Assembly: GCA_964347155.1 (NCBI GenBank)
Contig: CAYFXR010000149.1
Coordinates: forward strand, 1-33,332
Length of the DNA stretch: 33,332 nucleotides
Origin: an uncultured Nitrospiraceae bacterium
GTDB lineage: Bacteria; Nitrospirota; Thermodesulfovibrionia; UBA6902
Direction of reading: 5' to 3'
Shown one piece after another: positions 4,093 to 25,697 of the stretch (position 1 is the first letter of the stretch; the number at the start of each line of letters is the position of its first letter). Position numbers and translations under genes: made by a program. The notes beneath the pieces are model-generated. The model was not told the origin of the DNA and did no database searches. It saw only the letters and a list, made by a program, of their open reading frames with translations.

Positions 4093-4176
4093 ATGCTGTT
4101 TTATTAACAACGCTTCATGTAAATTCGTTTTAACAGTTCCAGCCGTTCCAAATGTTCCAACGGATGGAACTGCTCA

Positions 4177-6601: not shown

Positions 6602-6712
6602 AGTATCGTTATAACATATTTGTCACAACGGTGTAAAGAAAAAAATGTCAAAATGCAATTATCGGAGGCATAGATAACTTCGAAATATTTAAAAATGCAA
6701 CATGATTACCAG

Positions 6713-6781
6713 ATGCCATTTTGCAATCGATAAAAATTTTTTACATACATTTATACTGTTATGATTGCAAAATGGCATGTT
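6713..6781. promoter_or_regulatory. 15-bp inverted repeat TGCCATTTTGCAATC ...37 nt... GATTGCAAAATGGCA upstream of the modE-like gene
   Basis: Seen directly. Located in the 285-bp gap between the fmdE-like and modE-like genes. Confidence 0.4.
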
Positions 6782-6886
6782 TAAAGGAGTTGCTTTTAAA
6801 GCTTTTTTCAGGTATCTATGCCTGTTATTTGCATAGGGAAATGACGTAAAAGAACAAAGAAACTGCGGAAATGTGGGACTGCTGTA

Positions 6887-7489
6887 CTATGGCGATTTAT
6901 AATAGGATCCCTGGGCACAGGCTTTACAGAAAAGTCTGCCGTTTACATTGACATCCCTCTTGTCCTGGACGTATTCACCACATTTTTCGCATTTAATTCT
7001 CCGAACGGGCCTTCCGGGCATATCCTCTTCAGGTACTTCAACGCTTACATTTGTCCATTCGAATAATTCGTTATCAGGCATGATCTTATAAGCTTCAAGC
7101 TGGCATTTATATTTATCTTCAATATCTGGAAAATAATTTTTTGCCTTGTCTTTGGATTCCTCTTTCGCAAGAATTCTTACCGCTTTTCCTGTTTTCAGAT
7201 TTGCATAAGTAGCTGCCATCTTTCCGAAATCAAGAAATTTTAACGACCTTTTACCCAGGCTGCAGCCGGTAACGGACTGTATTGCATCGGTAGCGCACCG
7301 GTCTATTTCAACATACACAATGAGCTTCTTTCTATCCTGCCCCTTTGGATCATTTATCCCTATCAACTCAAGTCCTAAAATGCTCATCCTTACACCAAGG
7401 ACCTGTCCAGGGCAAAGATGTCCATGTGTTTTTACTGATTCCTCGAGGAGTCTCTCAAAACCGAGTTTATCTAACATCTCATATTCCAT
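6887..7489 (-). CDS. FmdE/FwdE-domain protein with C-terminal zinc ribbon
   Basis: HGHLCPGQVLGVRM motif characteristic of the FmdE family. C-terminal CEKCGEY...CKAC. Confidence 0.75.
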   Translation of the reverse strand: MEYEMLDKLGFERLLEESVKTHGHLCPGQVLGVRMSILGLELIGINDPKGQDRKKLIVYVEIDRCATDAIQSVTGCSLGKRSLKFLDFGKMAATYANLKTGKAVRILAKEESKDKAKNYFPDIEDKYKCQLEAYKIMPDNELFEWTNVSVEVPEEDMPGRPVRRIKCEKCGEYVQDKRDVNVNGRLFCKACAQGSYYKSP

Positions 7490-7611
7490 CTCCTATTTTT
7501 ATCCAACCTGCAAATTTTCTTTTACTTATTTCAATGTATAGTACCTGCTTTGCTTCAAAAAAGCCAATCCAAATCCACCTTCAATTTTCTATGATTTTGT
7601 ACCTACTTCCT

Positions 7612-7825
7612 TTACCCAGAAAATGCATTTTAAATAATGCAGGCTTTGGAAGAAAATTTATTTATCGATACATTAGACGCAATTCCAACCAATCTAAGGT
7701 GAATATTTTTATTCCAAGCTATATGCATGATTTAATAGTAAATCCATCCCGTAAAATATTTACTATTTACGGGATAAATCGAATTAAATAAATTTTATTA
7801 CAATGTCTGCATTATTTAAGTTTAA
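7612..7825 (-). mobile_element. MITE-like element, sub-family 2 (copy B), with extra internal hairpin CCCGTAAA..TTTACGGG
   Basis: Reverse complement aligns along its length with 10164-10343. Termini TTACCCAGAAAATGCATTTTAAATAATGCAGG and CAATGTCTGCATTAT. Confidence 0.65.
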
Positions 7826-7899: not shown

Positions 7900-8754
7900 A
7901 TGTTTAAACTCAGTATATTCCTTATAGCATTTCTAATACTTTTCATTAGTACAAATATATCATATGCTAAGGAAAAGGAGATTATCTTTGCCATTTCGCC
8001 AATGGCATCTCCTGTTTCCACTCTCTCTTATTACAATGATTTTATAAGATATCTTTCTAAAAAGACAGGTCTAATGATCATTCCTAAACAGAGGAGAACC
8101 TACGCTGAGATTAACTCCCTTTTAAAGAAGGGCGAAGCAGAGTTCGCCTATACGTGCACCGGGGCTTACATAAGAGGCAATTTTGACTTCGGACTTGAAC
8201 TCCTTGCCGTGCCAGTCATAAATGGCAAGACAAGCTATCATTCATACATAATTGTAAACAAAGAAAGCAAGATCGAGATCTTCTCCGGGCTTCGAGGAAG
8301 GGTCTTTGCCTTTACAGACCCGCTCTCATTGACAGGGAGACTGTACATCATACATCTCCTTGATACAATGGGTCTCATACCGGAGGAATTTTTTGAAAAG
8401 ACTTTTTACACATCAAGTCATGAAAAATCAATACAATCTGTGGCAAATGGACTTGCAGATGGGGCGGCAGTTGACAGTCTTATTTTTGACGATATGAAGA
8501 GAAAACATGCCCCGTCCACAAGCAATGTAAGAATTATAAAGATTTCACCGCCTTACGGCATACCTCCGGTTGTGGCGTCTCCTGTTGCGGAAAAATCAAC
8601 CAAGCAGCTTATATTAAAGACCCTTATTAAGATGGCAGAGGATACAACCGGAAGGGAGATTCTCCAGGGAATCCATATTGAAAAATTTATTATTCCTGAC
8701 CCTGCTATTTATAAGACTGCGGCAGAAGTGAGGGAGGCAACATTTCTACGGTGA
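7900..8754 (+). CDS. PhnD/SsuA-family periplasmic solute-binding protein (sensor-associated, AioX/ArxX-like)
   Basis: Signal peptide. PhnD-like fold motifs. Single mature Cys in FAYTCTGAY. A strong SD (AGAGGGGAA) precedes the ATG. Overlaps the kinase start (GTGA). Confidence 0.8.
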   Translation: MFKLSIFLIAFLILFISTNISYAKEKEIIFAISPMASPVSTLSYYNDFIRYLSKKTGLMIIPKQRRTYAEINSLLKKGEAEFAYTCTGAYIRGNFDFGLELLAVPVINGKTSYHSYIIVNKESKIEIFSGLRGRVFAFTDPLSLTGRLYIIHLLDTMGLIPEEFFEKTFYTSSHEKSIQSVANGLADGAAVDSLIFDDMKRKHAPSTSNVRIIKISPPYGIPPVVASPVAEKSTKQLILKTLIKMAEDTTGREILQGIHIEKFIIPDPAIYKTAAEVREATFLR

Positions 8755-10175
8755 GATTAGGAAAAATCTACAACAGCATAGCATTTCGCATCTCTATCTC
8801 CATTGCCGTTGTAGTGGCTGCTACAACGATGGGTGTGAGTTGGCTGCTGCTGAGAGAAGAAAGAAAAACACTGGAACTTGAACTTCGTAGCAAGGGAATG
8901 TACCTTGCAAATACAATGTCCCACCATATCATCGAACCATTCCTTTATGAGGAACGGCATGAAATATTCTCTCTTCTCAAAGCATCTATGATTGACGAAG
9001 AGAGTCTTGTGGTGCATGCCGAGGTCTATGACAAGAATAGAGAATTGATTGTTACAGCAGACAAGGATGAAAAGTGGCAAACAATAAAGTTTCAGCCGCT
9101 TAACTTTGAAGATTCACTAGAGGATATTATTATCGAGGAAGACAATATCTTGCCAATTTATCATATATCTTTACCTCTTAAAGTAGAAGCACTTGGAACT
9201 ATTGGATTTATCAGGCTGTGCATAACAAAAGAATACCTTTATAAGACCCTTGGAAATGTAAAACAGAAGCTTTATCTTCTGTCAGCAGCCGTTATCTTTA
9301 TCGGCATAATGCTGGGACTCTGGATGGCAAGAAAAATTTTAAGACCAATACTTATTCTTAATAAAGGGGTAAAAATGGTTGGTGAAGGAGGGCCGGGTGT
9401 TGAGATACCTGTAGTTGGAGAGGGCGAGATAAAAGAGCTGGCACTTTCTTTTAACAGAATGTCCGAGAAATTGAAAGAACAGATTGAGGTGATAAAGACC
9501 GCTCAGGAAAATCTTATAAGGACAGAGAAACTCTATGCCGTTGGAGAATTCTCTGCAGGAATTGCACATGAAATAAAGAACCCTCTTACATCCATCAAAA
9601 TGCTTATGCAGACTACACGATACAAAAAAAAGGCACTGTCCGACAGAGATTTTGAGATTATTGAGGGAGAGATAAACAGGATAGATCGTATCGTAAAAGA
9701 GTTTCTTGCTTTTGCAAGACCTGAAAAGATTGAAAAGACAGATATAAGTATAAATGATGTCCTTGAAGAAGTTATTACATTGACCGAGCCAAAGATGAAA
9801 CAAACTACCATACAACTTGAACAGATGTTTTCTCCCAACCTGCCGATGATCAAGGGAAATCTTGATGGTCTCAAACAGGTTTTTCTCAATATTGTTCTTA
9901 ATGCCTTACAAGCAATGAATGGTGGTGGCACACTGGGTATAGAGACATCAAAGAATAAAGATATGCTGTCAGTTGTAATAAGAGACACCGGCGCTGGGAT
10001 TCCAAAACAGGATTTAAAAAGAATTTTTGACCCTTTCTTTACAACAAAAGAGGAAGGAACCGGTATGGGACTGGCTCTAACGTATAAAATAGTGAATGAC
10101 CACTCTGGCAAGATTGATATAGATTCGACTACATCCGGTACAACGGTAAAAGTGGATTTGCCCTTACCCGAATAA
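8751..10175 (+). CDS. Sensor histidine kinase (2 TM, periplasmic domain, HAMP, HisKA, HATPase_c)
   Basis: HEIKNPLTSI H-box and N/G1/G2 boxes (DTGAGIP, GTGMGLAL). GTG start overlaps the upstream stop. Confidence 0.85.
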   Translation: MRLGKIYNSIAFRISISIAVVVAATTMGVSWLLLREERKTLELELRSKGMYLANTMSHHIIEPFLYEERHEIFSLLKASMIDEESLVVHAEVYDKNRELIVTADKDEKWQTIKFQPLNFEDSLEDIIIEEDNILPIYHISLPLKVEALGTIGFIRLCITKEYLYKTLGNVKQKLYLLSAAVIFIGIMLGLWMARKILRPILILNKGVKMVGEGGPGVEIPVVGEGEIKELALSFNRMSEKLKEQIEVIKTAQENLIRTEKLYAVGEFSAGIAHEIKNPLTSIKMLMQTTRYKKKALSDRDFEIIEGEINRIDRIVKEFLAFARPEKIEKTDISINDVLEEVITLTEPKMKQTTIQLEQMFSPNLPMIKGNLDGLKQVFLNIVLNALQAMNGGGTLGIETSKNKDMLSVVIRDTGAGIPKQDLKRIFDPFFTTKEEGTGMGLALTYKIVNDHSGKIDIDSTTSGTTVKVDLPLPE

Positions 10176-10343: not shown

Positions 10344-11750
10344 ATGAATACACTTCTTATTATAGATGACGAAAAAGCAGTGAGATACTCCTTTAAAAGG
10401 ATGTTTGAAGATGAATACAGGGTTTTAACTGCTGAGGACGGTGTATCGGCTCTGAATATTCTCGATACCAGCTATATTGGTGTTGACGTCATTTTCCTTG
10501 ATGTCAGAATGCCTGGCATGGGGGGGATAGAGGTGCTTAAAAAGATTAAGGAGATAACAAAGAACATTCCTGTTGTAGTAATGACGGCATTTGGCGATTC
10601 TGATACTGCTATTGAAGCTATGAAAGAAGGGGCGTTTGATTACCTTACAAAGCCTTTAGAGGGTAACCAGCTAAAAGATGTTATTGAAAAGGCGCTTGCA
10701 TCGGCACGGCTTCAGCAAGATGCTTCCTGTTGTGGAACGATAGAAGAACTCTCGGATAAGGAAGAGACAATTGTGGGAAAAACTCAGTCAATTCTTGATG
10801 TTTGTAAGATGATCGGTCAGGTTGCAAACACAGATGTGCCTGTGCTCGTAACAGGAGAAAGTGGTGTAGGAAAGGAGTTAGTGGCACGGGCAATATACAA
10901 CCACGGTAGTAGAAAAGGTAGACCTTTTATGGCTGTTAATTGTGCTGCACTTCTTGAGGGTGTGGTAGAGAACGAATTATTTGGTTCAGAGAAAGGGGCA
11001 TTCACGGGCGCTGACAAGAGGAGAATAGGAAGGTTCGAACAGTGTGACGGGGGTACTATCTTCCTTGATGAGATCGGAGATATGAGTATTCCAACTCAAG
11101 CTAAATTACTCAGGGTACTCCAGGATGGTAGCTTCGAGCGTATCGGAAGCAATGAGACAATAAAGACAAATGTGCGTATCATTGCTGCCAGTAATAAAAG
11201 TCTCCACGACGAGGTAAGGAACGGCAGGTTCAGAGAAGACCTGTTTCACAGACTCAATGTTTTTTCCATACACATTCCTGCGCTCAGAGAAAGAATGGAA
11301 GATATTCCGTTGCTCTCAGATTACTTCCTCTCAAGGGCGGTCAGGGATACGGATAAAAAGATCACGGGATTTTCACATGACGTAATTAAACGTTTTATGT
11401 CATATAACTGGCCGGGCAATGTGAGAGAGCTTGAAAATACCATAAAACGGGCTGTGGTAATTACTACTGGAGAGGTTCTTGGTGTGAATGATGTTATTTT
11501 AAATGCTGAGTCATGTACAAAAGAGTTTCAAGAGCTTTCTGTGGTAATTGACGGTTTATTTGAAAGGACGATTAACACGCAAGCCCCTTCAGACAGTTAT
11601 CACTCTATCCTCTCACGTGTGGAAAAATGTCTTATTGAAAAGGCACTAAATGTAACAAAGGGGAATCAGGTACAGGCATCTGCACTACTCGGTATTACAA
11701 GAGTCACATTAAGAAAAAAGATGCAAGAGTTCAAAATCCCGTCTGTATAG
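10344..11750 (+). CDS. Sigma-54-dependent response regulator (REC + AAA+ sigma54-activator + Fis-type HTH), NtrC/AioR-like
   Basis: Receiver Asp (FLDVRMPGMGG), Walker A GESGVGKE, GAFTGA motif, C-terminal HTH. Confidence 0.9.
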   Translation: MNTLLIIDDEKAVRYSFKRMFEDEYRVLTAEDGVSALNILDTSYIGVDVIFLDVRMPGMGGIEVLKKIKEITKNIPVVVMTAFGDSDTAIEAMKEGAFDYLTKPLEGNQLKDVIEKALASARLQQDASCCGTIEELSDKEETIVGKTQSILDVCKMIGQVANTDVPVLVTGESGVGKELVARAIYNHGSRKGRPFMAVNCAALLEGVVENELFGSEKGAFTGADKRRIGRFEQCDGGTIFLDEIGDMSIPTQAKLLRVLQDGSFERIGSNETIKTNVRIIAASNKSLHDEVRNGRFREDLFHRLNVFSIHIPALRERMEDIPLLSDYFLSRAVRDTDKKITGFSHDVIKRFMSYNWPGNVRELENTIKRAVVITTGEVLGVNDVILNAESCTKEFQELSVVIDGLFERTINTQAPSDSYHSILSRVEKCLIEKALNVTKGNQVQASALLGITRVTLRKKMQEFKIPSV

Positions 11751-13626: not shown

Positions 13627-14541
13627 ATGTATAGAGAAAACCGAAAGATGAGAAAGCTGAACCGAAGAGAATTTATAAGGCTGACAGCTGTTGGCGGGAC
13701 CGGCATTCTCCTGCCCCAACCGCTAAGGGTGCTTGATGACGCGTTTGACCAAATTATCGGGACTACACAGCAGAATAGCAAGATCGAATATGTACCGAAG
13801 CCGGTCACTGGGGTCAGATTCGGGATGGTTATAGACCTCGGAAAGTGCATTGGTTGCAGGCGGTGCATGTATGCCTGTAAACGGGAAAACAATGTGCCTG
13901 ACACCATTTCCCCTCCTTATATCATGGTGTTTGAAACCGAATCAGCTACGGGCGTAACAGGCCACTTCCCTTCACCGGAAATTCCGTGGAAGGGCACAAC
14001 AATGTATTACACCAGACTCCGGAAAGATAAGTGGTATATGCCAGTACAGTGTAACCATTGCGATCATGCTCCGTGTGTGAAAGTTTGTCCTACCGGAGCG
14101 TCATATAAAGATCCTGATGGTCTTGTATTGATAGATTATGAAAAATGTATAGGATGCCGGTATTGTATGACTGCATGTCCGTACAACGCCCGAAGATTCA
14201 ATTGGTGGGAGCCGGAGATACCTCATGACCGTATAAATCCCCTAGTGCCCTTACGCAGACACGGCATTGTAGAGAAATGCACCTTCTGCGTACACCGTAC
14301 AAGAAGGGGTAAATTCACACGTTGTGTGGAAGTATGCCCGAACAAGGCAAGAACCTTCGGAAATTTCAATGACCCTGACAGCAGGGTTTCCAAATTGGTT
14401 GAAACCGAAAGGAACTTCCGACTAAAGGAAGGACTTAATACAGAGCCACGTATATGGTATCTCACAAGACCCAAAGAAAAGCGCATGAGGTGGTATCGTC
14501 CCCTGCCTCCGTCTGAAAATATCAGAGGTGTCAGGTCATGA
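13627..14541 (+). CDS. TAT-exported 4x[4Fe-4S] ferredoxin subunit (NrfC/PsrB/DmsB-like)
   Basis: Twin-arginine motif NRREFIRL. Four Cys clusters (CIGCRRCMYAC; CNHCDHAPCVKVCP; CIGCRYCMTACP; CTFC...CVEVCP). The alternative start at 13648 is equally possible. Confidence 0.85.
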   Translation: MYRENRKMRKLNRREFIRLTAVGGTGILLPQPLRVLDDAFDQIIGTTQQNSKIEYVPKPVTGVRFGMVIDLGKCIGCRRCMYACKRENNVPDTISPPYIMVFETESATGVTGHFPSPEIPWKGTTMYYTRLRKDKWYMPVQCNHCDHAPCVKVCPTGASYKDPDGLVLIDYEKCIGCRYCMTACPYNARRFNWWEPEIPHDRINPLVPLRRHGIVEKCTFCVHRTRRGKFTRCVEVCPNKARTFGNFNDPDSRVSKLVETERNFRLKEGLNTEPRIWYLTRPKEKRMRWYRPLPPSENIRGVRS

Positions 14542-15716
14542 AAGATGTAAGCAGATCCTTTCACATCTTTGTTGTCGTATTGCTGGTCGTGATAGGCCTG
14601 GGCAGCTTCAACTGGCTTCGTTTCTTAACACATGGCCCCGGACTTACCGGTTCAAGTGATGCGGTGCCATGGGGAATATACATAACCGGGCTGGCATACT
14701 TTATAGGATTAAGTGCAGGCGCAACAATCGTCGGATTATTGATACACGGGTTTGGCCGTAATGACTACAAACCAATAGGGATACGCGCAATTCTTCTCGC
14801 GCTCCTCTGTATCTTCGGAGCCACACAATTTGTCCTGGTAGACCTGGGTGTTCCTTTTAGGGGATTGAAGGTGCCTCTCGTACTTCACAACCTGACGTCA
14901 CTCTTCCTTATCTCCTCGTCAAGCTATTACGGATTTATGACCATATTGGGAGGAGAACTCTACTTCTCAATAAAAGTGGCGAAAGGGAAAGCAAGCCACC
15001 GGGATGAAACAATAGCAAAATGGCTTGGAATTCTTGCGGTTCCGTATGCCCTCTGGGTAGTTCATGCCTTCACTGGATCAATCTTTGGTGTAGTAAAAGC
15101 AAGGGAAATGTGGAATACCCCCATGCTGCCGGTACATTTCGTGATATCAGCCATTGCAAGCGGATTTGCCATGGTGATATTGGTAGGAATAATAACATCG
15201 AAAATAGAAAAAAGAGAGCTCCTGAGCAGTGGAACTTATGACCACATGGGTAAACTGCTGGCCTTCTTTGTGGTAGTAACCCTGTTCCTTGACTTCTTTG
15301 ACTATTTTATTCTTCGATACAGCGCAAAAGCAGAGGCAATGGAAACATGGCATATTCTGACGGGCAGATATGCCCCTGTATTGGCAATGAATATCGGTGG
15401 ATTGGCTTCTGCGTTTTTGATACTGATCTTCAGAAAGGGGAGAACCGTCAATGGAATGTTTATTGCTACGATCCTGGTACAGCTGGCAATCATAGCATAT
15501 CGTATTAATCTGGTATCAGTAGGACAGTTAGTCCCTTTATTCCCGGGTATGGGTGAAATATACTACAGCCCGACATTTTCAGAGATATCAGTGGCGTTGG
15601 CTTTAGTGGCGCTTGTAATACTCCTTTATGCGGTGCTGTCCAGGATAATGCCTATGGAAGAAACAGTTCAGGAACTTGTACAGCAGCCGGTACAACGCAG
15701 CTGGAGGCATAGATAA
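14538..15716 (+). CDS. NrfD/PsrC-family polytopic membrane quinol-interacting subunit
   Basis: 392 aa, ~9-10 TM helices. ATGA overlap with the upstream FeS gene, typical for PsrBC/NrfCD pairs. Confidence 0.85.
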   Translation: MKDVSRSFHIFVVVLLVVIGLGSFNWLRFLTHGPGLTGSSDAVPWGIYITGLAYFIGLSAGATIVGLLIHGFGRNDYKPIGIRAILLALLCIFGATQFVLVDLGVPFRGLKVPLVLHNLTSLFLISSSSYYGFMTILGGELYFSIKVAKGKASHRDETIAKWLGILAVPYALWVVHAFTGSIFGVVKAREMWNTPMLPVHFVISAIASGFAMVILVGIITSKIEKRELLSSGTYDHMGKLLAFFVVVTLFLDFFDYFILRYSAKAEAMETWHILTGRYAPVLAMNIGGLASAFLILIFRKGRTVNGMFIATILVQLAIIAYRINLVSVGQLVPLFPGMGEIYYSPTFSEISVALALVALVILLYAVLSRIMPMEETVQELVQQPVQRSWRHR

Positions 15717-15752: not shown

Positions 15753-17219
15753 TTGATAGGCGGAGGTGAAAAATTGGACAAACAATCACGTGTAGATGTT
15801 CCAAATAGATATATTCAAAATAGATCCAGAAAAACAAAAAATGACTTTTCATATTATTGGGGTATTTGGTTTATCTTAGGCATTCTCCTTATATATATAC
15901 TGATAAAAATCGTCACCTATGCGCCACATACGGAAGAAGAAAAATGGATACCGGAACCTGCCAGGATTACTATCCCCGGCAGTCCCGATTATGTTGGTTC
16001 AGAGAGGTGCAGGGATTGCCACTGGAAGGAATACGATACCTGGAAGAATACATTACATTCCAAGTTTATGCAACTCCCGAATGAATACACGATCATAGGT
16101 GACTTTGAGAAAAATAACAAGTTGACTGTTAAAGTCACGAGTAAGGTGCCCGGGCTATCAAACAGACTGGTTACCAGCACAATGTATAAGAAGAACGGTG
16201 GTTTCTACGTGAACACCATTGGTCCTCATTTGAAGTACAACAATTATGAAATCACTCACGTCATCGGCATCGGAAGGAGACAGACATATATCACTACGTT
16301 CTCAAACGGTGAAATGCATGTCCTTCCAGTCGAGTGGGACGTCGAGAAGAAGACGTGGGTTGACAACAACGGCTTAAAAAACCACTACCCTGGAGATGGT
16401 GAATACTGGAGCGATAAGGGCAGTATCTGGCAATACAGGTGCGGTGGCTGCCACGTTACCGGCATGAAGATAAATTATGATGAAACAAGAGATTTCTTTG
16501 ACACCGACTGGGTAGACACCGGCATTGCATGTGAGGCATGCCATGGACCGGGTAGTAATCATGTCCAGGCTGCAAGTATGTTCTTTGAGGGCGAGAAGGA
16601 CACAATCATTAATCCGGCAAAGTTGCCGTGGCGGCTTCGTGCCATGATATGTGGCCAGTGCCACAACTGGGGATTAAGCACTACTGCAATTTCCCCAAAC
16701 AAGGAAGGCTTCCCGAAACAATTCAGCTACCCGTATGGTTATCAGGCTGGAAAAGCACTCTATCTCTACTATGTAGAGGAGCGTAAAAAGGAGAAGATAC
16801 ACCACCAGCAATACAATGAGTGGCAGCAGAGCGAGCACGCAAAAACAGGCGTTATGTGCACGAATTGTCACAATGTCCATCAAGAAGAAGATATAAAAAT
16901 TGCCATGACAAAGCTTACCCCGGACAGCTTATGTATGGATTGCCACAAGACATTGCAAAGAAGGGCAGCGCACAGAATTCATACATTCGGAAGCTGTGTT
17001 GCCTGTCACATGCCGAAGACAATAGGGCATGAACACAGTCATACATTTAAATTTATTTCGCCTGAGCTGAGCATAAGGGCGGGAGGCATTGAAAAACAAC
17101 CTAATTCCTGTAGCGGCTGTCATCACCACAAAGAGACGCCATTAGTGAATCTTGTTGAATTCCTTGATGCCGCCAAAAAAAGAGATATGCCGAAACCATT
17201 TTCAGCACACAGGAGGTAA
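15753..17219 (+). CDS. Membrane-anchored octaheme cytochrome c
   Basis: Eight CxxCH motifs (CRDCH, CGGCH, CEACH, CGQCH, CTNCH, CMDCH, CVACH, CSGCH). N-terminal TM anchor. No ATG before the anchor, so a TTG start (15753 or 15774) is assumed. Confidence 0.8.
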   Translation: MIGGGEKLDKQSRVDVPNRYIQNRSRKTKNDFSYYWGIWFILGILLIYILIKIVTYAPHTEEEKWIPEPARITIPGSPDYVGSERCRDCHWKEYDTWKNTLHSKFMQLPNEYTIIGDFEKNNKLTVKVTSKVPGLSNRLVTSTMYKKNGGFYVNTIGPHLKYNNYEITHVIGIGRRQTYITTFSNGEMHVLPVEWDVEKKTWVDNNGLKNHYPGDGEYWSDKGSIWQYRCGGCHVTGMKINYDETRDFFDTDWVDTGIACEACHGPGSNHVQAASMFFEGEKDTIINPAKLPWRLRAMICGQCHNWGLSTTAISPNKEGFPKQFSYPYGYQAGKALYLYYVEERKKEKIHHQQYNEWQQSEHAKTGVMCTNCHNVHQEEDIKIAMTKLTPDSLCMDCHKTLQRRAAHRIHTFGSCVACHMPKTIGHEHSHTFKFISPELSIRAGGIEKQPNSCSGCHHHKETPLVNLVEFLDAAKKRDMPKPFSAHRR

Positions 17220-17279: not shown

Positions 17280-18851
17280 ATGAAAAGAGTTCTTTTATAC
17301 GTAATAACTGCCCTGATAGTCATGACAAATATTCATTATTCATATGCTGCAGAGGAATCATCCGCGGAGTTGCCTTATGTAAGACCCCAGTTTTTCTGTG
17401 GCGCCTGTCATGTCCTTACTTATCCTAAGGTAATAAAAAAGGCGCATACGTCATGGCAGGCTGGTAAACATAAAGATGTCCCCTGTGTAGATTGCCATTA
17501 TCCTCCTGAAAAACTCGATGTCAGAATCCCCGAACATGAAAAAATTCCAAGAGATGAAGAGACTGCATCAGGCAAGAAGACGGCTCTGGAGTTTATGAAG
17601 ACCGAGCTGGAAGTCTTATCAAGGCTGATAACAATATTGAATATGGAAGAGTCAGTGATAAGGACAAAGCCAAGAATTGACGACAGGAGTTGTAAGCAAT
17701 CCAAATGCCATCCGCCAACCGGCATTGGCAGGGAAGGAGAGTTCTGGACTAAAAAAATCAATTTCTTTGAGTATGAAAGAGAGGATAAATCAAAAGGCGT
17801 TATCCCGTATGTTCATGAAAAACATTTTGATAAGGAGAAATGGATAGAAGGTCAGGAGATGCACTGTACAACCTGTCATCAACATGAGACTAGTCAGAAA
17901 CATTTTGAAGTCTCCCGGAAGAAGTGCTTTCTCTGCCACTTTAAGAATGTCAAATTAAATGAAGAACGGGCAAAATGCTCACTATGTCACGAGATTCCCA
18001 CAAAACCTCTTCAGAGACAAAAGAAAGAAGGAGCAGACCCTGATGAAAAACCTATTACTCATCAATCGATTGAAGAGGCAAAGGTACAGTGCGAGAGCTG
18101 CCATCTCCACTTTATAAAAGGTAACGGTACGGTAAGGAAGGAAAAGTGTCTTAATTGTCATGAAAATGAAGAATCAACTATTAAGGAGGTGCTTAATAAA
18201 AAACGTATGCATGAAGAACATGTAGCAGGACAGAATGCCGGTTGTTTTAGTTGCCATGAGACTATTGAGCATAATAAACAGGGAGATTTTATAGATATTG
18301 CAAGGGAAAACTGCCAGGCATGCCATCCTGATCATCATAAGTACCAGAAGATGCTTTTACTTGGAGAAAAGAGGAAAGGAGTATCACATATCCCGGGCCT
18401 CATGTTTGCTGTGAATACGAACTGCCTCGCATGTCATCTTGAAGAAAGACTTATTAATGGAGAGAAAGTTGTGCATGGCTCGGGAAAGGCGTGTGCTGCT
18501 TGCCATACTGAAAAACATGAAGGCATGGTAAAGGAGTGGAAGGACAAGGCAGGGGAAGAGTTAAAGAATGCCCAGGAGATCGGCAAAGAGGCTTCAAATG
18601 CTATTGAAGAAGCAAAGGGCAAGGTGAGGGAGGAGATATTAAAAGAAGCATTGGCAATGGTAAAAGAGGGTCAGGAGAATTTAAAGATTGTTGAATACGG
18701 AGGGGGGGTTCACAATAAGAAATACTCTATAATGCTTCTTGACGTGGCCATGTCCAACTTTGAGGATGCCATAGATTTGCTTAGTGAAGATGAGGACGAA
18801 GAGGAAGGCGAAGAAGACGAAGAATACGATGAAGATGAGGATGATGAATGA
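17280..18851 (+). CDS. Dodecaheme cytochrome c (11 CxxCH + 1 CX4CH) with N-terminal anchor and poly-acidic C-terminal tail
   Basis: Motifs counted directly, including the non-canonical CKQSKCH. Final 27 aa are almost entirely D/E. SD AAGGAGGGA upstream. Confidence 0.85.
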   Translation: MKRVLLYVITALIVMTNIHYSYAAEESSAELPYVRPQFFCGACHVLTYPKVIKKAHTSWQAGKHKDVPCVDCHYPPEKLDVRIPEHEKIPRDEETASGKKTALEFMKTELEVLSRLITILNMEESVIRTKPRIDDRSCKQSKCHPPTGIGREGEFWTKKINFFEYEREDKSKGVIPYVHEKHFDKEKWIEGQEMHCTTCHQHETSQKHFEVSRKKCFLCHFKNVKLNEERAKCSLCHEIPTKPLQRQKKEGADPDEKPITHQSIEEAKVQCESCHLHFIKGNGTVRKEKCLNCHENEESTIKEVLNKKRMHEEHVAGQNAGCFSCHETIEHNKQGDFIDIARENCQACHPDHHKYQKMLLLGEKRKGVSHIPGLMFAVNTNCLACHLEERLINGEKVVHGSGKACAACHTEKHEGMVKEWKDKAGEELKNAQEIGKEASNAIEEAKGKVREEILKEALAMVKEGQENLKIVEYGGGVHNKKYSIMLLDVAMSNFEDAIDLLSEDEDEEEGEEDEEYDEDEDDE

Positions 18852-18983: not shown

Positions 18984-19856
18984 ATGAGTAAGATAAATAC
19001 TGTAACTGTATCCCGCCGCGATGTGCTCAAGACAGGCAGCGCTGTTGTTGCGGCTGCTGCTACAACAACAGGCCTTGTGCCAGATGTAGCAGAGGCTGCA
19101 AAAAAGAAAAAGAAAAAACTTGCCCGCTGGGCTATGGTAGTTGACCTCAGGAGATGCATTGGCTGCAGGGGATGCTGCATTGCAGACAAGGCAGAATATG
19201 GAGCTGCACTCGGAAGGTATAACACGGTTGTCAAGAATGTAGAGTACGGCAAATATCCTGCTCCCCAAAAGCATTTCCTTCCTCGTCTGTGTAACCACTG
19301 TGCAGGCGACCCATCAAAAGAATGGCAGGTCCCGCCATGTGTTGAGGTATGTCCCGAAGCAAAAAGCGGAGAGAGGAAGAAAATGGGGAATGAAAGATAC
19401 AGGACAGGCGCTACGTATAAGCGACCTGACGGGATGATTTTGATAGATCCCAACCTCTGTATCGGCTGTTACAAATGTGTTGATGCATGTCCGTATGGAG
19501 TGCGCTCTCCTGACCCTAATGTAAAGCTTACCAGGCCTGACAGGGAAAAGGATATCGGAGTGGGTAAATGTACGTTCTGCCGGCATCGTGTCGATAAGGG
19601 AATTACGACTTCATGTACGAATACCTGTCAGGGCATGGCAAGGAATTTCGGTGATCTGAACGACAAAAAAAGCAAGGTCTATAAACTTGCCAAGGAATTT
19701 AAATTGCTCGAAAACAGGGACAAGTCAACCCTGCTTCCGGAAGAAAAGACTATGCCTCACGTATTTTATATAGACCCGGATGGTGTGTTAGCGCACTACA
19801 ATAAGAAAATTACAAAAGAGACAAAATTGCGGGAGTTTACATCCTGGTTTGAATAA
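18984..19856 (+). CDS. TAT-exported 4x[4Fe-4S] ferredoxin subunit partner of the molybdopterin enzyme (PsrB/ArrB/DmsB-like)
   Basis: SRRDVLK TAT motif after ATG 18984 (SD AAAGGAGG). Four Cys clusters. The ORF-track GTG 18936 extension is unlikely. Confidence 0.85.
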   Translation: MSKINTVTVSRRDVLKTGSAVVAAAATTTGLVPDVAEAAKKKKKKLARWAMVVDLRRCIGCRGCCIADKAEYGAALGRYNTVVKNVEYGKYPAPQKHFLPRLCNHCAGDPSKEWQVPPCVEVCPEAKSGERKKMGNERYRTGATYKRPDGMILIDPNLCIGCYKCVDACPYGVRSPDPNVKLTRPDREKDIGVGKCTFCRHRVDKGITTSCTNTCQGMARNFGDLNDKKSKVYKLAKEFKLLENRDKSTLLPEEKTMPHVFYIDPDGVLAHYNKKITKETKLREFTSWFE

Positions 19857-19889: not shown

Positions 19890-22373
19890 ATGGCTAATGT
19901 AACACGACGAAATTTCATACAGCTGGGCATCGCAAGCGGAGCCCTCCTTGCTGCCGGAGAAGGTATTGTATTCCCTGCTTTAGCTGGTGCAGTAAAGTTA
20001 GATAAAGGCGGCAAGGATTTCAACTTTAAGACGGATGCAGAGAGAACAGCCATTCCAACTGCATGCTGGTCATGTTTTACCAGGTGTGCGGCTATCGGTT
20101 TTGTGGAGGATGGCAAGCTTGTTAAAATCGAATCCAATCCTAATTCTATCAGAACCGAGGGCAAAATGTGTGCAAAAGGACAGTCAGGTCCCAACGATAT
20201 CTATTTCCCGGACAGGATACTCTATCCAATGAAACGTGCAGGCAAACGCGGTGAGGGTAAATGGAAGAGGATTTCCTGGGATGAGGCTATTACAGAATTA
20301 TCAGGACGGCTAAAAAAGCTCCGTGACGACGGTAATCCAGAGAAATTCATGTTCCACTATGGCATGATGGAGGCAAGTTCTAGAAAACTGATGAAAAACG
20401 TTTTCCTTGATACGTACGGCACAGGGACGATAGGAAACCATACCTCTACAAGCACGAGCGCAAAAAAGACAGCGCAGGAACTGACGTGGGGCGAGTTCTT
20501 CGATAACTGGGACTTTGACAATACCAAGTTTGTCATGAATTTTGGAAGTAACGTGCAGGAGGCCCATATCAATCATGTACCTTGCTCAAACAGGCTGATA
20601 AAGGCAAGGGTTGAAAACGGTGTAAAGAGTGTTACCTTTGATGTGAGATTTTCAAATACCGCGGCAAAGTCAACTGAATGGATACCAATCAAACCGGGAA
20701 CCGATGGAGCAGTTGCCCTCGCTATGTGTAATGTGATAATGCAAAACGATCTTTATGACAAGGATTTCTTTACATTCATCAGGGCTAAGGAGAATGTCAA
20801 TCTCTCTATAGACGAAAAGGTATCTGCTTTGAAATCTCACCTCTCCCGATATACACCTCAATGGGCGGAAAAAGTAAGCGGTGTGAGCGCCGCTAAGATC
20901 GAATCTCTCGCAAAAGAATTCGCAAAGACAAAGCCTGCAGTAGTAATCAGCTTTAGAGGGGCAATAGCCCATTACAACGGTGTCGAAAACGAACGTGCTA
21001 TCCAGATGCTTGCTGCAATAACAGGCAACATTGATAACCCAGGCGGAAGATGCAGAGGTGTGCGAGCCAGATGGGAATATCCAAAGGGGCCGAAAGATAA
21101 ACCGGAGACAAAGAGACTGGATATAATTGACGGCAAAGGCGCAGCCCTACCGACTCACAACATGGGACACCAGGTATTTAAGATGATCAAGGAAGGCGGT
21201 AATGGAAGACCTGAAGTATACATGTGGTACTGCTATAACCCTGTGTATGTGAACGGCGAAAGCACGGAGAATGCAGAGGTTCTGAAAGACGAAAAGATGA
21301 TCCCCTTTACAGTGGCTTCAACTATTGTCTATGACGAATCGAGCAAACTCGCTGATTTGATCCTGCCTGATGCCACCTATCTCGAAAGATGGGACTGGGA
21401 AGACAATGTCTCCCCCACTCAGATTCCAGAATACTATATCCGACAGCCCCTGGTAAAGCCGCTTGGGGAGGCCAGGGATTTTGGAGACGTGGTGATTGAG
21501 ATTGCAGAGAAAATGGGCATGCCTTTAGGTGTTGGCAGTTCTAAAGAGGAGTTTGTAAGGAAATCCTGCGAGATGACTCCCGGTGTAAAGGAGGCAGGCG
21601 GCTTTGAGTACATGAAGAAGCAGGGTGTGTGGCATGACCCGAATGAAAAACCTCGTTATCATCTATACAGGGAAGAAGTAAAGACTGACGGTGCAATTCT
21701 TGATGAAGCAACGGGCGTATACTGGAGAGGAAAAGCAGGTGAAGATTACACCAAGACCAGAAATGCATACAGACAGTATGTTGGCCAGAAAATAGGAGAC
21801 AAGGTCTACAGAGGCTTTTATCCTGACAAGCTCAATAAGACTGGTTACTTTGAGCTTTACTCCGCGCTTATGAAAGAAAAGGGCTTTGACCCTCTTCCAA
21901 CCTGGATGCCGATACCTGAGCATGAGAACATGAAGCCTGATGAGCTGATTCTTGCTACCTATAAAGTCGCCATTCATATCCTCTCAAGGAGTTCACACCG
22001 TAAATGGCTAAGCGAGGTTTACCATGACAATCCAGGATGGATCAATCCTAAAACCGCAGCTACACGGGGTATCAATGATGGAGACAAAATCAAGGTTAAA
22101 TCAAGAGTCGGAGAGATTATAACCAGAGCACGTGTTACCGAAAAGGTTATTCCCGGAGTCATAGCCATCTCCTTTCATGCAGGACGCGAGGAAAGCGGAA
22201 GATACGGATCAGGCAATAAGTCACCGGAGGCACATGATAATGACCCGGATCTCCAGAACAAGTTCTGGGATACATATGGTGTAAATTCAAACAGGATTAT
22301 CCCCAACTCTTCTGACCCAATAAGTGGCCAGCTGTGCTGTATGGATACGGTTGTAACAGTGACAAAAGCATAG
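19890..22373 (+). CDS. TAT-exported molybdopterin oxidoreductase catalytic subunit, Psr/Phs/Ttr/Arr clade of the DMSO-reductase family
   Basis: TRRNFIQLG TAT signal. N-terminal CxxCxxxC...C [4Fe-4S] motif (CWSCFTRC...MCAKG). RISWDEAI and FGSNVQEAH family motifs. 827 aa. SD AAGGAGGA. Confidence 0.85.
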   Translation: MANVTRRNFIQLGIASGALLAAGEGIVFPALAGAVKLDKGGKDFNFKTDAERTAIPTACWSCFTRCAAIGFVEDGKLVKIESNPNSIRTEGKMCAKGQSGPNDIYFPDRILYPMKRAGKRGEGKWKRISWDEAITELSGRLKKLRDDGNPEKFMFHYGMMEASSRKLMKNVFLDTYGTGTIGNHTSTSTSAKKTAQELTWGEFFDNWDFDNTKFVMNFGSNVQEAHINHVPCSNRLIKARVENGVKSVTFDVRFSNTAAKSTEWIPIKPGTDGAVALAMCNVIMQNDLYDKDFFTFIRAKENVNLSIDEKVSALKSHLSRYTPQWAEKVSGVSAAKIESLAKEFAKTKPAVVISFRGAIAHYNGVENERAIQMLAAITGNIDNPGGRCRGVRARWEYPKGPKDKPETKRLDIIDGKGAALPTHNMGHQVFKMIKEGGNGRPEVYMWYCYNPVYVNGESTENAEVLKDEKMIPFTVASTIVYDESSKLADLILPDATYLERWDWEDNVSPTQIPEYYIRQPLVKPLGEARDFGDVVIEIAEKMGMPLGVGSSKEEFVRKSCEMTPGVKEAGGFEYMKKQGVWHDPNEKPRYHLYREEVKTDGAILDEATGVYWRGKAGEDYTKTRNAYRQYVGQKIGDKVYRGFYPDKLNKTGYFELYSALMKEKGFDPLPTWMPIPEHENMKPDELILATYKVAIHILSRSSHRKWLSEVYHDNPGWINPKTAATRGINDGDKIKVKSRVGEIITRARVTEKVIPGVIAISFHAGREESGRYGSGNKSPEAHDNDPDLQNKFWDTYGVNSNRIIPNSSDPISGQLCCMDTVVTVTKA

Positions 22374-22462: not shown

Positions 22463-22746
22463 TTAACTCAAATAATGCAGAGTCGATTCGACCTCAAAAA
22501 TACCCGTCATACCTCCCCCTTTGGAAAAGGGGGATTTAGGGGGATTTTATAATGATAACGTCCTATAAATCCCCCCTCTCCCCGTATAGGGGCGTTGCAT
22601 CAACGGCGAAAAGCCGCGTTGCGGCCTCGCCGCTTTACGCGGGGCTTTACGCCCCACTTTAATAAAGTGGGGGAAATATATAATTAATATTGCGTTTAAG
22701 GTATCGTCCCGACACATCGGGACATTATTTAAAATGCATTTTTGGG
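22463..22746 (+). mobile_element. MITE-like element (copy E) carrying a ~185-bp GC-rich multi-hairpin cassette
   Basis: Family termini TTAACTCAAATAATGCAGAG ... TTAAGGTATCG...AAAATGCATTTTTGGGCT. Internal hairpins: CCCCCTTTGGAAAAGGGGG; GGGGGATTTTATAATGATAACGTCCTATAAATCCCCC; CCCCACTTTAATAAAGTGGGGG. Confidence 0.65.
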
Positions 22747-22754
22747 CTGAAGAA

Positions 22755-23408
22755 ATGACGAAAAAAATGATCGAAACAGCAAGACAACGAAGCAATATTT
22801 ACGGACTGCTTGCACTTGTTTACCGCAAAGAGGTGACAAAGACACTATTAAGGCATTTAAAAGACCCGGAGTTCCTTTCTGTCTTGTCAAACATGGGAGC
22901 TAGGCTGGAGGATGATTTTTTGAAAAGGCCCGAGGACGAATTAATAGAAGACCTTTCGATAGAATATACAAGACTGTTCTTAGGGCCTGGTAAGCATATC
23001 TCTCCCCATGAATCTGTTCATCATGAGAGAGGTGACGGAGATTGGGGCCAATTGTGGGGCAGGGCAACCGTTGAGGTAAAAAAATTTATTGAAACAGCAG
23101 GGCTTAAATATACGTCCAGTTACCCAGGATTACCTGACCACATCAGCGTTGAATTTGAATTCATGAGGGAAGTTACCAGGCGTGAAGCACATGCCCTCGA
23201 AGAGAATGATAATGATGGGCTGCTCTCTTGTCTGATGATGGAGAACAAATTTATCGAAGACCATCTCTTAAAATGGGTTCCCATCTTTTGTGATAAGATC
23301 ATCTCTGAAGCGGAATTGTCTTTTTACAGGGAAATAGCAAAAATAACAAAGCTTTTTATTGAATTTGAAAAAGAAGAATTGAAGGGATATATATCAGTTT
23401 TATTTTAG
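22755..23408 (+). CDS. TorD/DmsD-family redox-enzyme maturation chaperone
   Basis: EYTRLFLGPG signature. The ORF-track start at 22734 lies inside the repeat terminus (AAATGCATTTTTGGG). ATG 22755 or 22767 is more plausible. Confidence 0.75.
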   Translation: MTKKMIETARQRSNIYGLLALVYRKEVTKTLLRHLKDPEFLSVLSNMGARLEDDFLKRPEDELIEDLSIEYTRLFLGPGKHISPHESVHHERGDGDWGQLWGRATVEVKKFIETAGLKYTSSYPGLPDHISVEFEFMREVTRREAHALEENDNDGLLSCLMMENKFIEDHLLKWVPIFCDKIISEAELSFYREIAKITKLFIEFEKEELKGYISVLF

Positions 23409-23415: not shown

Positions 23416-24201
23416 TTATCGCAGTCTGAGGTCTGCTGTCACTTTATCCTTATGGCATGTGATACATATTTTAAAAATTGGGCCACTTATACGGAACGTT
23501 GAATTCCCACTTGCTCCTTCTGCCTCAGATCTTTCAGTTTGACCAGCCAGACGAACCCTGTATTTCTCACTAGCCCCTTTTGCGGCAGATTTCTCATAAG
23601 GTATTACTCCTCTTTCATGTGGATTATGACAGGTAGCACACATAATTTCCCCTTTGAAATTTAGCGGAAGTATTATATCGAACTCTTTTTCTGATGCTTT
23701 CATCATTGCCAGCATCTCATTGGATGGCTTGCATATGTGATTTGCATTTACAGGATGTGCATGGTCATACACTTTACTGTGACATCCCAGGCACAGCACA
23801 TCAAGACTTCTAATGAATTTAATTTCCGGACGATGGATTGTAAATGTTGCACGTTTTTCATCAGGCTTTTCCGGATGGCAGTATAAACACTTTTCTCTGA
23901 TAATATCTCCTGTTTCATTTAACTGGTTATGAGGATCGAAAATCTTATATTTATTTTTTTGATGGCACTTAGAACAGATATCTTTTTTTTGAAGGGAGGC
24001 TTTTTTTTGAAATTTCCTTACAGTTCTCTTGTGAACTTTATGCCATCCCCACTTTCCTCTATAGGAAGGATCTATTTCATCGTTTTCAGTATCATTCTGA
24101 GTAAATCTGACAGGTATTATTTTACCTCTCTCTTGTGCGGATAATGTATTGCTCATAGGAATCATTATTATGAGTAGGAGAATTGATATTGTGCGATTCA
24201 T
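23416..24201 (-). CDS. Periplasmic pentaheme cytochrome c
   Basis: Five CxxCH (CSKCH, CLYCH, CLGCH, CATCH, CITCH). The signal peptide starts at the Met at 24201. The upstream 46 codons of the ORF-track model read through a repeat copy. Confidence 0.8.
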   Translation of the reverse strand: MNRTISILLLIIMIPMSNTLSAQERGKIIPVRFTQNDTENDEIDPSYRGKWGWHKVHKRTVRKFQKKASLQKKDICSKCHQKNKYKIFDPHNQLNETGDIIREKCLYCHPEKPDEKRATFTIHRPEIKFIRSLDVLCLGCHSKVYDHAHPVNANHICKPSNEMLAMMKASEKEFDIILPLNFKGEIMCATCHNPHERGVIPYEKSAAKGASEKYRVRLAGQTERSEAEGASGNSTFRISGPIFKICITCHKDKVTADLRLR

Positions 24202-24211
24202 TATCACGCCA

Positions 24212-24350
24212 TTAATCCAAACAATACATTTCAGATAATGCAGGCTTTGTGTCCCGATGCATCGGGACGATACCTTGGAAATTCGTAATCCATGTCCGTA
24301 GTACGTGTCCGTAAAAAACGGATAACGGACACGTTTCACGATAATATAAG
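24212..24350 (-). repeat. Partial MITE-like copy (copy F) plus hairpin CGTGTCCGT..ACGGACACG
   Basis: TTAATCCAAACAATACATTTCAGATAATGCAGGC terminus. Internal GGTATCGTCCCGAtgCATCGGGAC is shared with copy E. Confidence 0.55.
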
Positions 24351-24509: not shown

Positions 24510-25697
24510 TTAAATTTCTATATCCTTCCACTTTATTAAATACATGACAACAATCCCTACAAAAAATGCGATTCCCATATTAGTTGTTGCAAGACCGATA
24601 CCTGCAATCATTAATGCTACGAAAAGGTCTCTCTTTTCTTTTACATCTCTTATCAGCAAAGCCAGTTCAAGCCCTGCATATAGAAGAAGTATACCCAGAA
24701 CAGCATTGGGGATTGATGACAGAAGAGATATCCCTATCTTGCCAAAGACAAGGGCAATCAGCACAAAAATAGCCCCGATCATTACATTAGAACCACCTGT
24801 CCTTGCACCGAATCTGTAGTGTGCAGCAAGACCGCCTGCACCATGACACATAGGCATCCCTGCAATTGATCCCGTAACGATGTTCGTAAGACCCATGCTT
24901 GTAGCAAATCCACGATAACTTACCCTCTTGGTACTCTCTCCTTTACCAAAAAGGGAAAAACATGTATCAGCGGTGCCCATTACCGCATTACCCAGGGTTA
25001 GAGGTATCTGGGGAATTACAAGAAGAATAAAGGCGTTCACGAAGTCATCCATAGTGGGTTTGAAGACTTTAATCGGTGCAGGTCCTAATGAGAGGCTGAC
25101 ACCTTCCAGTGCTCCGCTTAACACGCCGATAACGATTCCCGTGAATACTATTACGATGGCTGCTGGAAAGCGTTTGCTCGATATCAACATAAGTACAATG
25201 ACAAATCCTAAAATACCGATTACTAGATTGAAAGAGATGCCTGTAAAAGAAATAACCGCACCGGATTTTTGGATAAAAAGCTCAGGTTTTTGGATAAAAC
25301 TGATTCCTTTCGTGATAAGGATAAGTCCAAGCCCTAACTGTATACCCCTCATGATTGGTTTTGTAAAGAATTTAGCTAGCCAGTCAATCAAACCGGTAAA
25401 GGATAAAAATAGTAAAATTGCCCCAAAAGTTATACCTGATGCCGCTATAATCGGCAAGGTTATCTTCGCAGGATATGCAATAGCAATTGCTGATACCACC
25501 TTTAACGGCTGTACAGGTATGGGGAGTTTATAATAGATACCACTGACGATATAAAAAAGACCAACCATCAAAAGCACAGAAGTTACACCAAGACCGGTAA
25601 TAACTATTAGTGCTACAGAAAGCGGAATTAATGTACCAAGGTCTCCCAGAGAGCCTGCAAACTCTACCCTGTCAAACTTAAATGAGCCAATCTGCAT
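24510..25697 (-). CDS. MOT1-family (SulP-like, no STAS domain) putative molybdate transporter
   Basis: Contains both MOT1 signature motifs: PVQPLKVVSAIA (cf. PxQPMKxIxA) and GMPMCHGAGGLAAHYRFGARTG (cf. MPxCHGxGGLAxQYxFGxRxG). ~10 TM. Confidence 0.7.
   Translation of the reverse strand: MQIGSFKFDRVEFAGSLGDLGTLIPLSVALIVITGLGVTSVLLMVGLFYIVSGIYYKLPIPVQPLKVVSAIAIAYPAKITLPIIAASGITFGAILLFLSFTGLIDWLAKFFTKPIMRGIQLGLGLILITKGISFIQKPELFIQKSGAVISFTGISFNLVIGILGFVIVLMLISSKRFPAAIVIVFTGIVIGVLSGALEGVSLSLGPAPIKVFKPTMDDFVNAFILLVIPQIPLTLGNAVMGTADTCFSLFGKGESTKRVSYRGFATSMGLTNIVTGSIAGMPMCHGAGGLAAHYRFGARTGGSNVMIGAIFVLIALVFGKIGISLLSSIPNAVLGILLLYAGLELALLIRDVKEKRDLFVALMIAGIGLATTNMGIAFFVGIVVMYLIKWKDIEI

Follow-up and report, generated by a model that had tools for sequence, protein, structure and literature searches.

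The question of what a periplasmic cytochrome with twelve predicted hemes would serve, when one heme site has the spacing CX4CH and the C-terminus is rich in Asp and Glu, is raised by a 33,332-nucleotide (nt) stretch of DNA from an uncultured Nitrospiraceae bacterium of the Thermodesulfovibrionia (contig CAYFXR010000149.1). This whole stretch is hereafter referred to as the window, and positions are counted from its first nucleotide. The gene in question, here named MHC12, and its elements are as follows (a slash marks the predicted cleavage site).

17280-18851 (+), dodecaheme c-type cytochrome gene MHC12, ATG start, 523 aa (open reading frame and translation)
17280-17351 (+), N-terminal Sec-type signal, MKR followed by VLLYVITALIVMT and NIHYSYA/AEE (read from the sequence)
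17397-18506 (+), span of 11 CxxCH motifs (motif scan)
17691-17711 (+), CX4CH motif CKQSKCH, third heme site, residues 138-144 (motif scan), within the peptide ...SCKQSKCHPPTGIGR
18087-18773 (+), OcwA/NrfA-like C-terminal module, residues ~270-498, with a c3-like tetraheme part, two more hemes and a three-helix bundle carrying GGGVHN
18786-18848 (+), acidic C-terminal tail EDEDEEEGEEDEEYDEDEDDE, residues 503-523, after ...AIDLLS, net charge -19

We propose that MHC12 is a dedicated electron-transfer subunit of the molybdenum (Mo) enzyme encoded downstream, carrying a c3-type CX4CH site handled by general maturation and, in one lineage, a tail that acts as an electrostatic tether; this combined reading is, in our judgment, moderately probable. 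It is based on the heme motifs, their conservation, modular homology, synteny and the co-occurrence of the tail with a poly-Lys run on the neighbouring subunit, from which heme occupancy and ligation, the electron path, general maturation and the tether itself are predicted.

The molybdoenzyme operon and its conservation

MHC12 is located within a single co-directional cluster, in which genes for regulators, an NrfC/NrfD-like pair, an octaheme cytochrome, MHC12, the iron-sulfur (FeS) beta subunit, the catalytic alpha subunit and a TorD chaperone follow each other, with genes for a receiver-only protein and an SPFH protein between the regulators and the NrfC-like gene. The assigned members besides MHC12, including those exported by twin-arginine translocation (Tat) and the enzyme with a Mo/W-bis(pyranopterin guanine dinucleotide) (bisPGD) cofactor, are listed below.

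7900-8754 (+), PhnD-like periplasmic binding protein (Pfam/profile scans)
8751-10175 (+), HAMP histidine kinase
10344-11750 (+), sigma-54 response regulator
13627-14541 (+), NrfC/DsrO-like Tat FeS protein (Pfam, NCBIfam)
14538-15716 (+), NrfD/DsrP-like quinone-interacting membrane protein (Pfam, NCBIfam)
15753-17219 (+), membrane-anchored octaheme cytochrome, 8 CxxCH, OcwA/NrfA-like (match to 6i5b, E=2e-22), with the hydrophobic N-terminal helix YWGIWFILGILLIYILIKIV
18984-19856 (+), Tat-exported four-cluster FeS beta subunit (Pfam Fer4_11 and TAT_signal; NCBIfam TtrB/DsrO-like models under their cut-offs)
19890-22373 (+), Tat-exported Mo/W-bisPGD catalytic alpha subunit, 827 aa (Pfam Molybdopterin, Molydop_binding and Molybdop_Fe4S4)
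22734-23408 (+), TorD/NarJ-family Tat proofreading chaperone (Pfam Nitrate_red_del, 87.7 bits)

Tat motifs are present on alpha, beta and the NrfC-like protein, and the octaheme protein has a transmembrane anchor. The mechanically delimited reading frame of beta begins with GTG at 18936; translation from the ATG at 18984, which is preceded by the ribosome-binding site AGGAGG, yields a product starting with MSKINTVTVSRRDVL, in agreement with the orthologues, and this ATG is probably the true start.

The conservation of this arrangement was examined in 87 related loci (L001-L004, the 77 species-representative loci L005-L081, and L082-L087), or 88 counting the window, which span Nitrospirota, Desulfobacterota, SAR324, Verrucomicrobiota and Victivallales. 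The alpha gene adjoins MHC12 in 70 of the 88 loci, accompanied in nearly all of these 70 by the gene for beta, and in the 18 loci with no alpha detected the contig is short or breaks off near the cytochrome gene. TorD and the PhnD-like, kinase and sigma-54 regulators were found where the contig reaches far enough, the regulator trio being whole or partial in most such loci. The block of octaheme, NrfC and NrfD genes is adjacent in close relatives and located downstream in many Desulfobacterota; none was seen in others. The alphas encoded beside MHC12 belong to several subfamilies, with phmmer scores against the window alpha ranging from ~130 to ~1900 bits, and none of them reaches a curated NCBIfam cut-off. 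Because the alpha gene adjoins MHC12 across the loci while the alphas fall in several subfamilies, MHC12 is the predicted constant redox partner for a family of periplasmic Mo enzymes that lacks characterised members.

Among the characterised Mo-bisPGD families (Psr/Phs, Arr/Arx, Ttr and Dms/Ynf), the window alpha stays under every curated equivalog cut-off, with 342 bits for PhsA (cut-off 694), 327 for DmsA/YnfE (778), 175 for ArrA (1600) and 121 for TtrA (1750). The closest structures in the Protein Data Bank (PDB) are Thermus PsrA (E=3e-51) and Shewanella ArrA (2e-45). By these scores alpha is placed in a clade outside the characterised Mo-enzyme families.

In the model proposed here, MHC12 would be exported by the Sec pathway as a periplasmic dodecaheme cytochrome and would carry electrons to or from the Tat-exported Mo enzyme (alpha and FeS beta, with TorD as chaperone), linking the FeS chain of beta to a membrane module, which would consist of the anchored octaheme, the NrfC-like FeS protein and the NrfD-like quinone-interacting protein, and through it to the menaquinone pool. 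The most economical path, whichever way the electrons flow, would be alpha - beta (FeS) - MHC12 - octaheme - NrfC - NrfD/menaquinone. The octaheme protein also gave weaker matches to NrfA and MccA besides OcwA, and by this likeness it could be catalytic itself instead of a relay. With respect to the signal to which the operon responds, the arsenite sensors AioXSR and ArxXSR share the same three-part layout of PhnD-like protein, kinase and sigma-54 regulator, and the PhnD-like sensor suggests, by its family, an oxyanion substrate.

A separate observation concerns the Mo ligand of alpha. Ser188 (nt 20451-20453, in the motif NHTSTSTSAKK) aligns with the Mo-ligand Cys173 of Thermus PsrA, and most alpha orthologues (64-70% identical) carry NHTSICEGGKW, with Cys at the position of Ser188. 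Ser-type alphas are found only in the clade of the window (the window itself, L005, L036 and L082-L085, and L001 and L016 with the variant NHESTSNSAKW), and the Cys-type alphas of L006, L086 and L087 are interleaved with them in the beta tree. From the alignment this looks like a Cys-to-Ser switch of the Mo ligand inside one operon family, which could alter the substrate or the redox potential.

Several genes at the borders of the cluster, all on the minus strand, were also assigned.

1480-1917 (-), ArsC-like protein, thioredoxin-type arsenate reductase (156 bits vs cut-off 174)
3088-5306 (-), MoaA and MoeA-like proteins (Mo cofactor)
5364-6122 (-), TauE/SafE sulfite-exporter family protein
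23416-24339 (-), pentaheme cytochrome after TorD, 5 CxxCH, with weak MtrC/DmsE-like matches
24510-25697 (-), MOT1-type molybdate transporter

In L005, L082 and L083 a homologue of the pentaheme cytochrome gene separates MHC12 from beta; in L001, L016 and L086 such a homologue is found downstream.

Heme sites and modular architecture of MHC12

The eleven CxxCH motifs of MHC12 start at residues 40, 69, 196, 216, 233, 271, 290, 322, 345, 382 and 405, and together with CKQSKCH they hold all 24 Cys of the protein, so that the count of eleven canonical motifs plus one CX4CH motif given in the initial annotation was confirmed. The motif scan of the 523 residues found no CxxCK, CX3CH or long-spacer (CX15CH) motif. 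At the N-terminus, MKR is followed by 21 uncharged residues, of which only ~13 form a strongly hydrophobic core ahead of a good SYA/A cleavage site, and the AlphaFold2 model has a helix at residues 2-21; this N-terminus looks like a Sec-type signal, either cleaved or retained as a signal anchor.

A search of 5.8 billion proteins identified 993 homologues of MHC12. The best 120 of them (49-76% identity, mostly ~505 aa) come from metagenome-assembled genomes (MAGs) of Nitrospirae/Nitrospirota and Deltaproteobacteria/Desulfobacterota, and are annotated as 'hypothetical' or 'class III cytochrome c family'. An exact match to MHC12 was looked for in public assemblies and none was obtained; of the relatives by which the organism was placed, the best is a Thermodesulfovibrionia MAG with 70% identity. 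Conservation was determined on 111 full-length homologues. C138, C143 and H144 of the CX4CH site are conserved at 99-100%, as are all other motif residues; the conservation of these cysteines in orthologues, which the initial annotation had singled out as the point on which the site should be judged, is thus established. The spacing of this site is variable, being CX4CH in ~97 of the 111 homologues (consensus CTTSKCH), CX3CH in 11 (CTIKCH or CTTKCH) and CX2CH in one; in one homologue the first Cys is replaced by Gly. Further CX2CH sites were found in the distant loci L042 and L077, and in the tree the clade that holds the window MHC12 is composed otherwise mostly of CX3CH members. Outside the motifs, twelve His are invariant (residues 64, 86, 179, 182, 195, 208, 261, 311, 314, 331, 353 and 478), one candidate distal ligand per heme, a number that fits twelve bis-His hemes as far as conservation can indicate and is no proof of them. 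In the model, all 12 sites would probably hold bis-His electron-transfer hemes.

The CX4CH site itself looks, from its sequence, like an ordinary feature of tetraheme cytochrome c3. The cytochrome c3 of Desulfovibrio vulgaris has CKKSKCH, nearly the CKQSKCH of the window. In alignments, the c3 chains 2cy3 and 1w7o show CTTSGCH, and the consensus CTTSKCH of the MHC12 family is nearly identical to it. The CXXXXCH pattern occurs twice in cytochrome c3 (PMC10454114), attachment of heme to CX3CH and CX4CH peptides of Methanosarcina MmcA was confirmed by mass spectrometry (PMC10153276), and heme 3 of anammox hydrazine dehydrogenase (HDH) is also bound at CX4CH, there described as rare and diagnostic for HDH (PMC6469936). 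The likeness of MHC12 to HDH is a coincidence of motif spacing only: no similarity in sequence or fold to HDH or hydroxylamine oxidoreductase (HAO) was found in any search, by which an HDH-like identity was rejected, and the relatives of MHC12 are Thermodesulfovibrionia and Desulfobacterota, not anammox bacteria. The view of this site as a rarity of the anammox type, as initially noted, was therefore not borne out.

The second expectation attached to the site, that of a dedicated maturation system, likewise found no support, given the c3-like motif, the CX3CH and CX2CH forms in relatives, and a window of 33 kb with no CcmF, CcsA or NrfE-type gene. Dedicated lyases are known for other motif types, namely CxxCK of NrfA with NrfEFG/CcsA2 and CX15CH of MccA with CcsA1; the motif of MHC12 differs from both, and the 33-kb window has no lyase gene. 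The sole candidate in the neighbourhood was a tetratricopeptide repeat (TPR) protein at 2367-3062 (-), for which the CcmH/CycH TPR domain was a secondary match at 53 bits (cut-off 42); it was rejected, since generic TPR models score far higher. That a single orthologous site can have CX4, CX3 or CX2 argues, by inference, against a spacing-specific lyase, and in the model the third heme would be held by a CX4CH loop of the c3 type, a structural variant that is conserved and served by the general maturation machinery.

By profile, MHC12 is assigned to the class III (c3/c7) superfamily, with a C-terminal half of the OcwA/NrfA superfamily devoid of the catalytic heme. PF14522 (Cytochrome_C7) scored 41.5 bits (cut-off 24.8) and PF14537 (Cytochrom_c3_2) 37.9 bits (cut-off 25), both within residues ~254-386. 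The family profile matched OcwA, the nonaheme cell-surface cytochrome of Thermincola potens (PDB 6I5B), with E=1.3e-11 over residues ~274-497, and also NrfA and c3, the c3 structures with E ~1e-3 over residues ~243-354. In the profile alignment the invariant GGGVHN (residues 474-479, nt 18699-18716) has its counterpart in SNGVHN of OcwA and SVGFHN of NrfA. With the single MHC12 sequence the PDB search gave a marginal c3 match only, and with the CX4CH-containing excerpt alone (123 residues from residue 123) it gave nothing at E<=10. MHC12 thus shares with NrfA, ONR, MccA and OcwA the heme-packing core and the C-terminal helical bundle, but it has neither a CxxCK nor a long-spacer motif, and its conserved His are as many as its hemes.

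An exhaustive search over 1.84 billion cluster representatives (clusters at 50% identity, E<=1e-30) gave 161 clusters related to MHC12. Many of these match residues ~172-502 alone, within proteins that range from 450 to 1441 aa, and on this evidence the C-terminal block of nine hemes is a module that has been reused widely. Hemes 1-3, including the one at CX4CH, belong to an N-terminal part that is confined to a few clusters. Taken by its profile matches, MHC12 is a modular protein composed of c7/c3-like domains and an OcwA/NrfA-like C-terminal half. It differs from c3 and c7, single small domains of 70-120 aa, in that modules are fused in a 523-aa chain, and the CX4CH site falls outside the segment aligned to c3. 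Its number of His would be compatible with bis-His ligation at every heme. OcwA has no equivalent of the N-terminal ~250 residues, which carry five hemes including that at CX4CH. In contrast to OcwA, NrfA, ONR and MccA, with 5, 8 or 9 hemes, MHC12 has 12 predicted hemes, is devoid of a catalytic CxxCK-type heme, and has a Mo enzyme as its genomic partner.

Other multiheme proteins were compared without success. The NapC/NirT profile (PF03264) scored 17.9 bits, under the cut-off of 24.1, and over residues 18-81 only; membership of the NapC/NirT/TorC quinol dehydrogenases was rejected on this score and on the short hydrophobic core with its plausible cleavage site. The DmsE and NrfB models were far under cut-off, the dodecaheme type of Geobacter GSU1996 was rejected as no PDB match was obtained, and BLASTP against the upstream octaheme protein indicated no real homology except for the heme motifs. 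TorC/DorC/NapC, PcrC, DmsE and HmcA/QrcA are functional analogues, in that a multiheme subunit whose gene neighbours those of an NrfC-NrfD quinone module, a Tat-exported Mo enzyme, or both, forms a periplasmic electron relay; they have no significant sequence similarity to MHC12, differ from it in heme number and architecture, and the octaheme partner is extra in the window. In the library that was searched, no paper was found on either MHC12 or its operon.

The acidic tail and the poly-Lys run of beta

The acidic tail described in the initial annotation is present but shorter than the 25 residues given there: it has 21 residues, 19 of them Asp or Glu, and a length of 25 is reached only when DLLS is included, with 20 Asp or Glu in the last 25. 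Its codons are imperfect GAN repeats (68-75% matches). About 100 of the best 120 homologues stop at ...DAIDLLSEE and have no tail. Long acidic tails (~14 to ~100 residues, net charge -13 to -56) are found in one clade of close relatives only, 62-76% identical to the window MHC12. Of the earlier caution that the tail might be strain-specific low-complexity drift, the low complexity and the variability thus hold, but the tail is specific to a clade, not to a strain. Runs of five or more Asp/Glu occur in MHC12 alone among the window reading frames of at least 100 aa. Neither the tail nor the CX4CH site, with its residues conserved at 99-100%, is a product of chance.

On the adjacent subunit, a run of opposite charge was identified.

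19101-19118 (+), poly-Lys run of beta (K40-K45), directly following the predicted AEA/A cleavage site (AEA/AKKKKKKLARW) and before the conserved RWAMV

The sole other run of five Lys/Arg in the same reading frames is RKKRK in RuvX. The net charge of mature beta is +20, or +13 without the Lys run. In the two tail-less loci first compared, beta is devoid of KKKKKK, and in the first set of loci the tailed ones (the window, L005, L006 and L036) have Lys/Arg runs of 6, 7, 8 and 9 on beta, with no other locus exceeding 3. Six further tailed loci were fetched as a test, and all six are rich in Lys/Arg at this place (K6, K3GK3, K8, K7GK, K4R2K5 and K7GK). Altogether, beta is Lys/Arg-rich in all 10 clade loci with an acidic tail, as uninterrupted runs of 6-11 in nine and as KKKGKKK in L083. 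Over all loci compared, such a beta accompanies 10 of 12 tailed but 1 of 47 tail-less cytochromes (Fisher p=1e-8, uncorrected for phylogeny), and the two tailed cytochromes that depart from this are from Desulfobulbus, where the extension is of another kind and only mildly acidic. In neighbour-joining trees of the cytochrome core and the beta core, a single clade bears both the tail and the poly-Lys run; inside it both traits are absent from L001 alone in the cytochrome tree, and from L001 and L016 in the beta tree.

The suggestion that the tail docks electrostatically on a basic partner gains support from this poly-Lys run on the adjacent beta in the tailed loci. In the model, the tail would be a flexible, lineage-specific extension tethering MHC12 to the poly-Lys N-terminus and to the generally basic surface of mature beta. 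A lineage-specific electrostatic tether between the two subunits is plausible from the distribution of the charged tracts.

The tails of L005, L006, L036 and L084-L087 (in L085 the gene at 5669-7498) carry, singly or in duplicate, a Cys-rich acidic repeat of the approximate sequence VEVDCECxDGELDCADEDAxAEAEEYxCECDDxDEVVC, and the tail of the window has no Cys. Judged from its composition, this repeat may be a metal-binding or disulfide-rich module. In L084 a small reading frame after the MHC12 gene (7637-7807) encodes another copy, which suggests a frameshift or an assembly break. Many of the source MAGs of the relatives are from hydrothermal or sediment samples.

Alternative explanations and significance of the MHC12 module

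Several points weigh against MHC12 as a bis-His wire tethered to beta. The NrfCD/octaheme module is absent or located elsewhere in many distant loci, so that the proposed path to quinone is not universal. Five conserved Met (residues 106, 122, 310, 375 and 416) leave room for a possible His/Met heme, and pairs of heme and ligand are not assignable given the mediocre quality of the AlphaFold2 model (mean pLDDT 66.5), in which confidence is low over the N-terminal third (<50 around residues 19-133, the stretch preceding the CX4CH site). With regard to the tether, the association of tail and poly-Lys run corresponds to about one event of joint gain and one of joint loss within a single clade, a severe phylogenetic non-independence; both tracts are encoded by purine-rich low-complexity DNA with imperfect repeats; and poly-Lys beside a Tat signal could serve export (Sec avoidance) instead.

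The last points lead to a serious rival of the tether, in which the tail and the poly-Lys run are functionally neutral low-complexity expansions co-inherited in one lineage, a possible reading, though not one that we consider probable. Most of the family does without a tail, the tails vary widely in length and sequence, imperfect trinucleotide repeats encode that of the window, and just one gain and one loss explain the distribution of the traits. On the other hand, both tracts are kept down to ~62% cytochrome identity and in 10 of 10 tailed clade loci, they are jointly absent in L001 and L016, and they place opposite charges on adjacent subunits with no other such runs in 33 kb. Binding of the tail to metal cations or mineral surfaces, brought to mind by the metal-binding look of the Cys-rich repeats in relatives and by the hydrothermal or sediment origin of many MAGs, has little probability: the window tail has neither Cys nor His, the protein is predicted to be periplasmic, no gene for a conduit through the outer membrane was identified in the cluster, and the matching poly-Lys run on beta would be left unexplained.

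Two other readings concern the cytochrome as a whole. MHC12 could be a membrane-anchored quinol dehydrogenase of the NapC/NirT/TorC type for the Mo enzyme instead of a soluble wire, as might be argued from the weak PF03264 match, which is also precomputed on several homologues, from the 21 uncharged residues after MKR, and from the many distant loci where only regulators, MHC12, beta, alpha and TorD are seen, without NrfCD in the vicinity. We regard this as unlikely, given that the match is under the cut-off and the hydrophobic core ends in a good cleavage site, that MHC12 has no CxxCHxM or other NrfH-type signature of heme 1, and that a complete NrfCD and anchored octaheme module adjoins it in the window. 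The homology of its C-terminal half to the NrfA/OcwA/ONR/MccA fold, together with the reduction of several substrates by OcwA and its relatives, could also point to a catalytic enzyme with one substrate-binding heme rather than a pure carrier. This appears very unlikely: there is no CxxCK or CX15CH motif, the invariant extra His equal the hemes in number, the homologous part comprises non-catalytic C-terminal hemes and helices, and the operon already has a catalytic subunit in the Mo protein.

The reading of MHC12 as the electron-transfer subunit of the Mo enzyme may be extended, only tentatively, to an undescribed and widespread periplasmic respiratory module of MHC12 and alpha-beta, which would be under the control of a PhnD-like oxyanion sensor and act on a substrate yet to be assigned, and in which tail and poly-Lys run would have co-evolved into a disordered tether in one marine, hydrothermal or sediment lineage of Thermodesulfovibrionia. 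Multiheme cytochromes and Mo-bisPGD enzymes drive the anaerobic cycling of sulfur, arsenic, selenium and nitrogen, and MHC12 is the marker of a conserved operon to which none of the records retrieved gives a name and which, by the scores of its alpha subunit, lies outside all characterised Mo-enzyme families. The spacing CX4CH/CX3CH/CX2CH is evolutionarily fluid at a single heme site, which argues against taking a CX4CH motif to indicate special maturation or chemistry of the anammox type. For this family the analysis provides a subunit model, a map of conserved residues, and a testable contact between the acidic tail of MHC12 and the poly-Lys run of beta.

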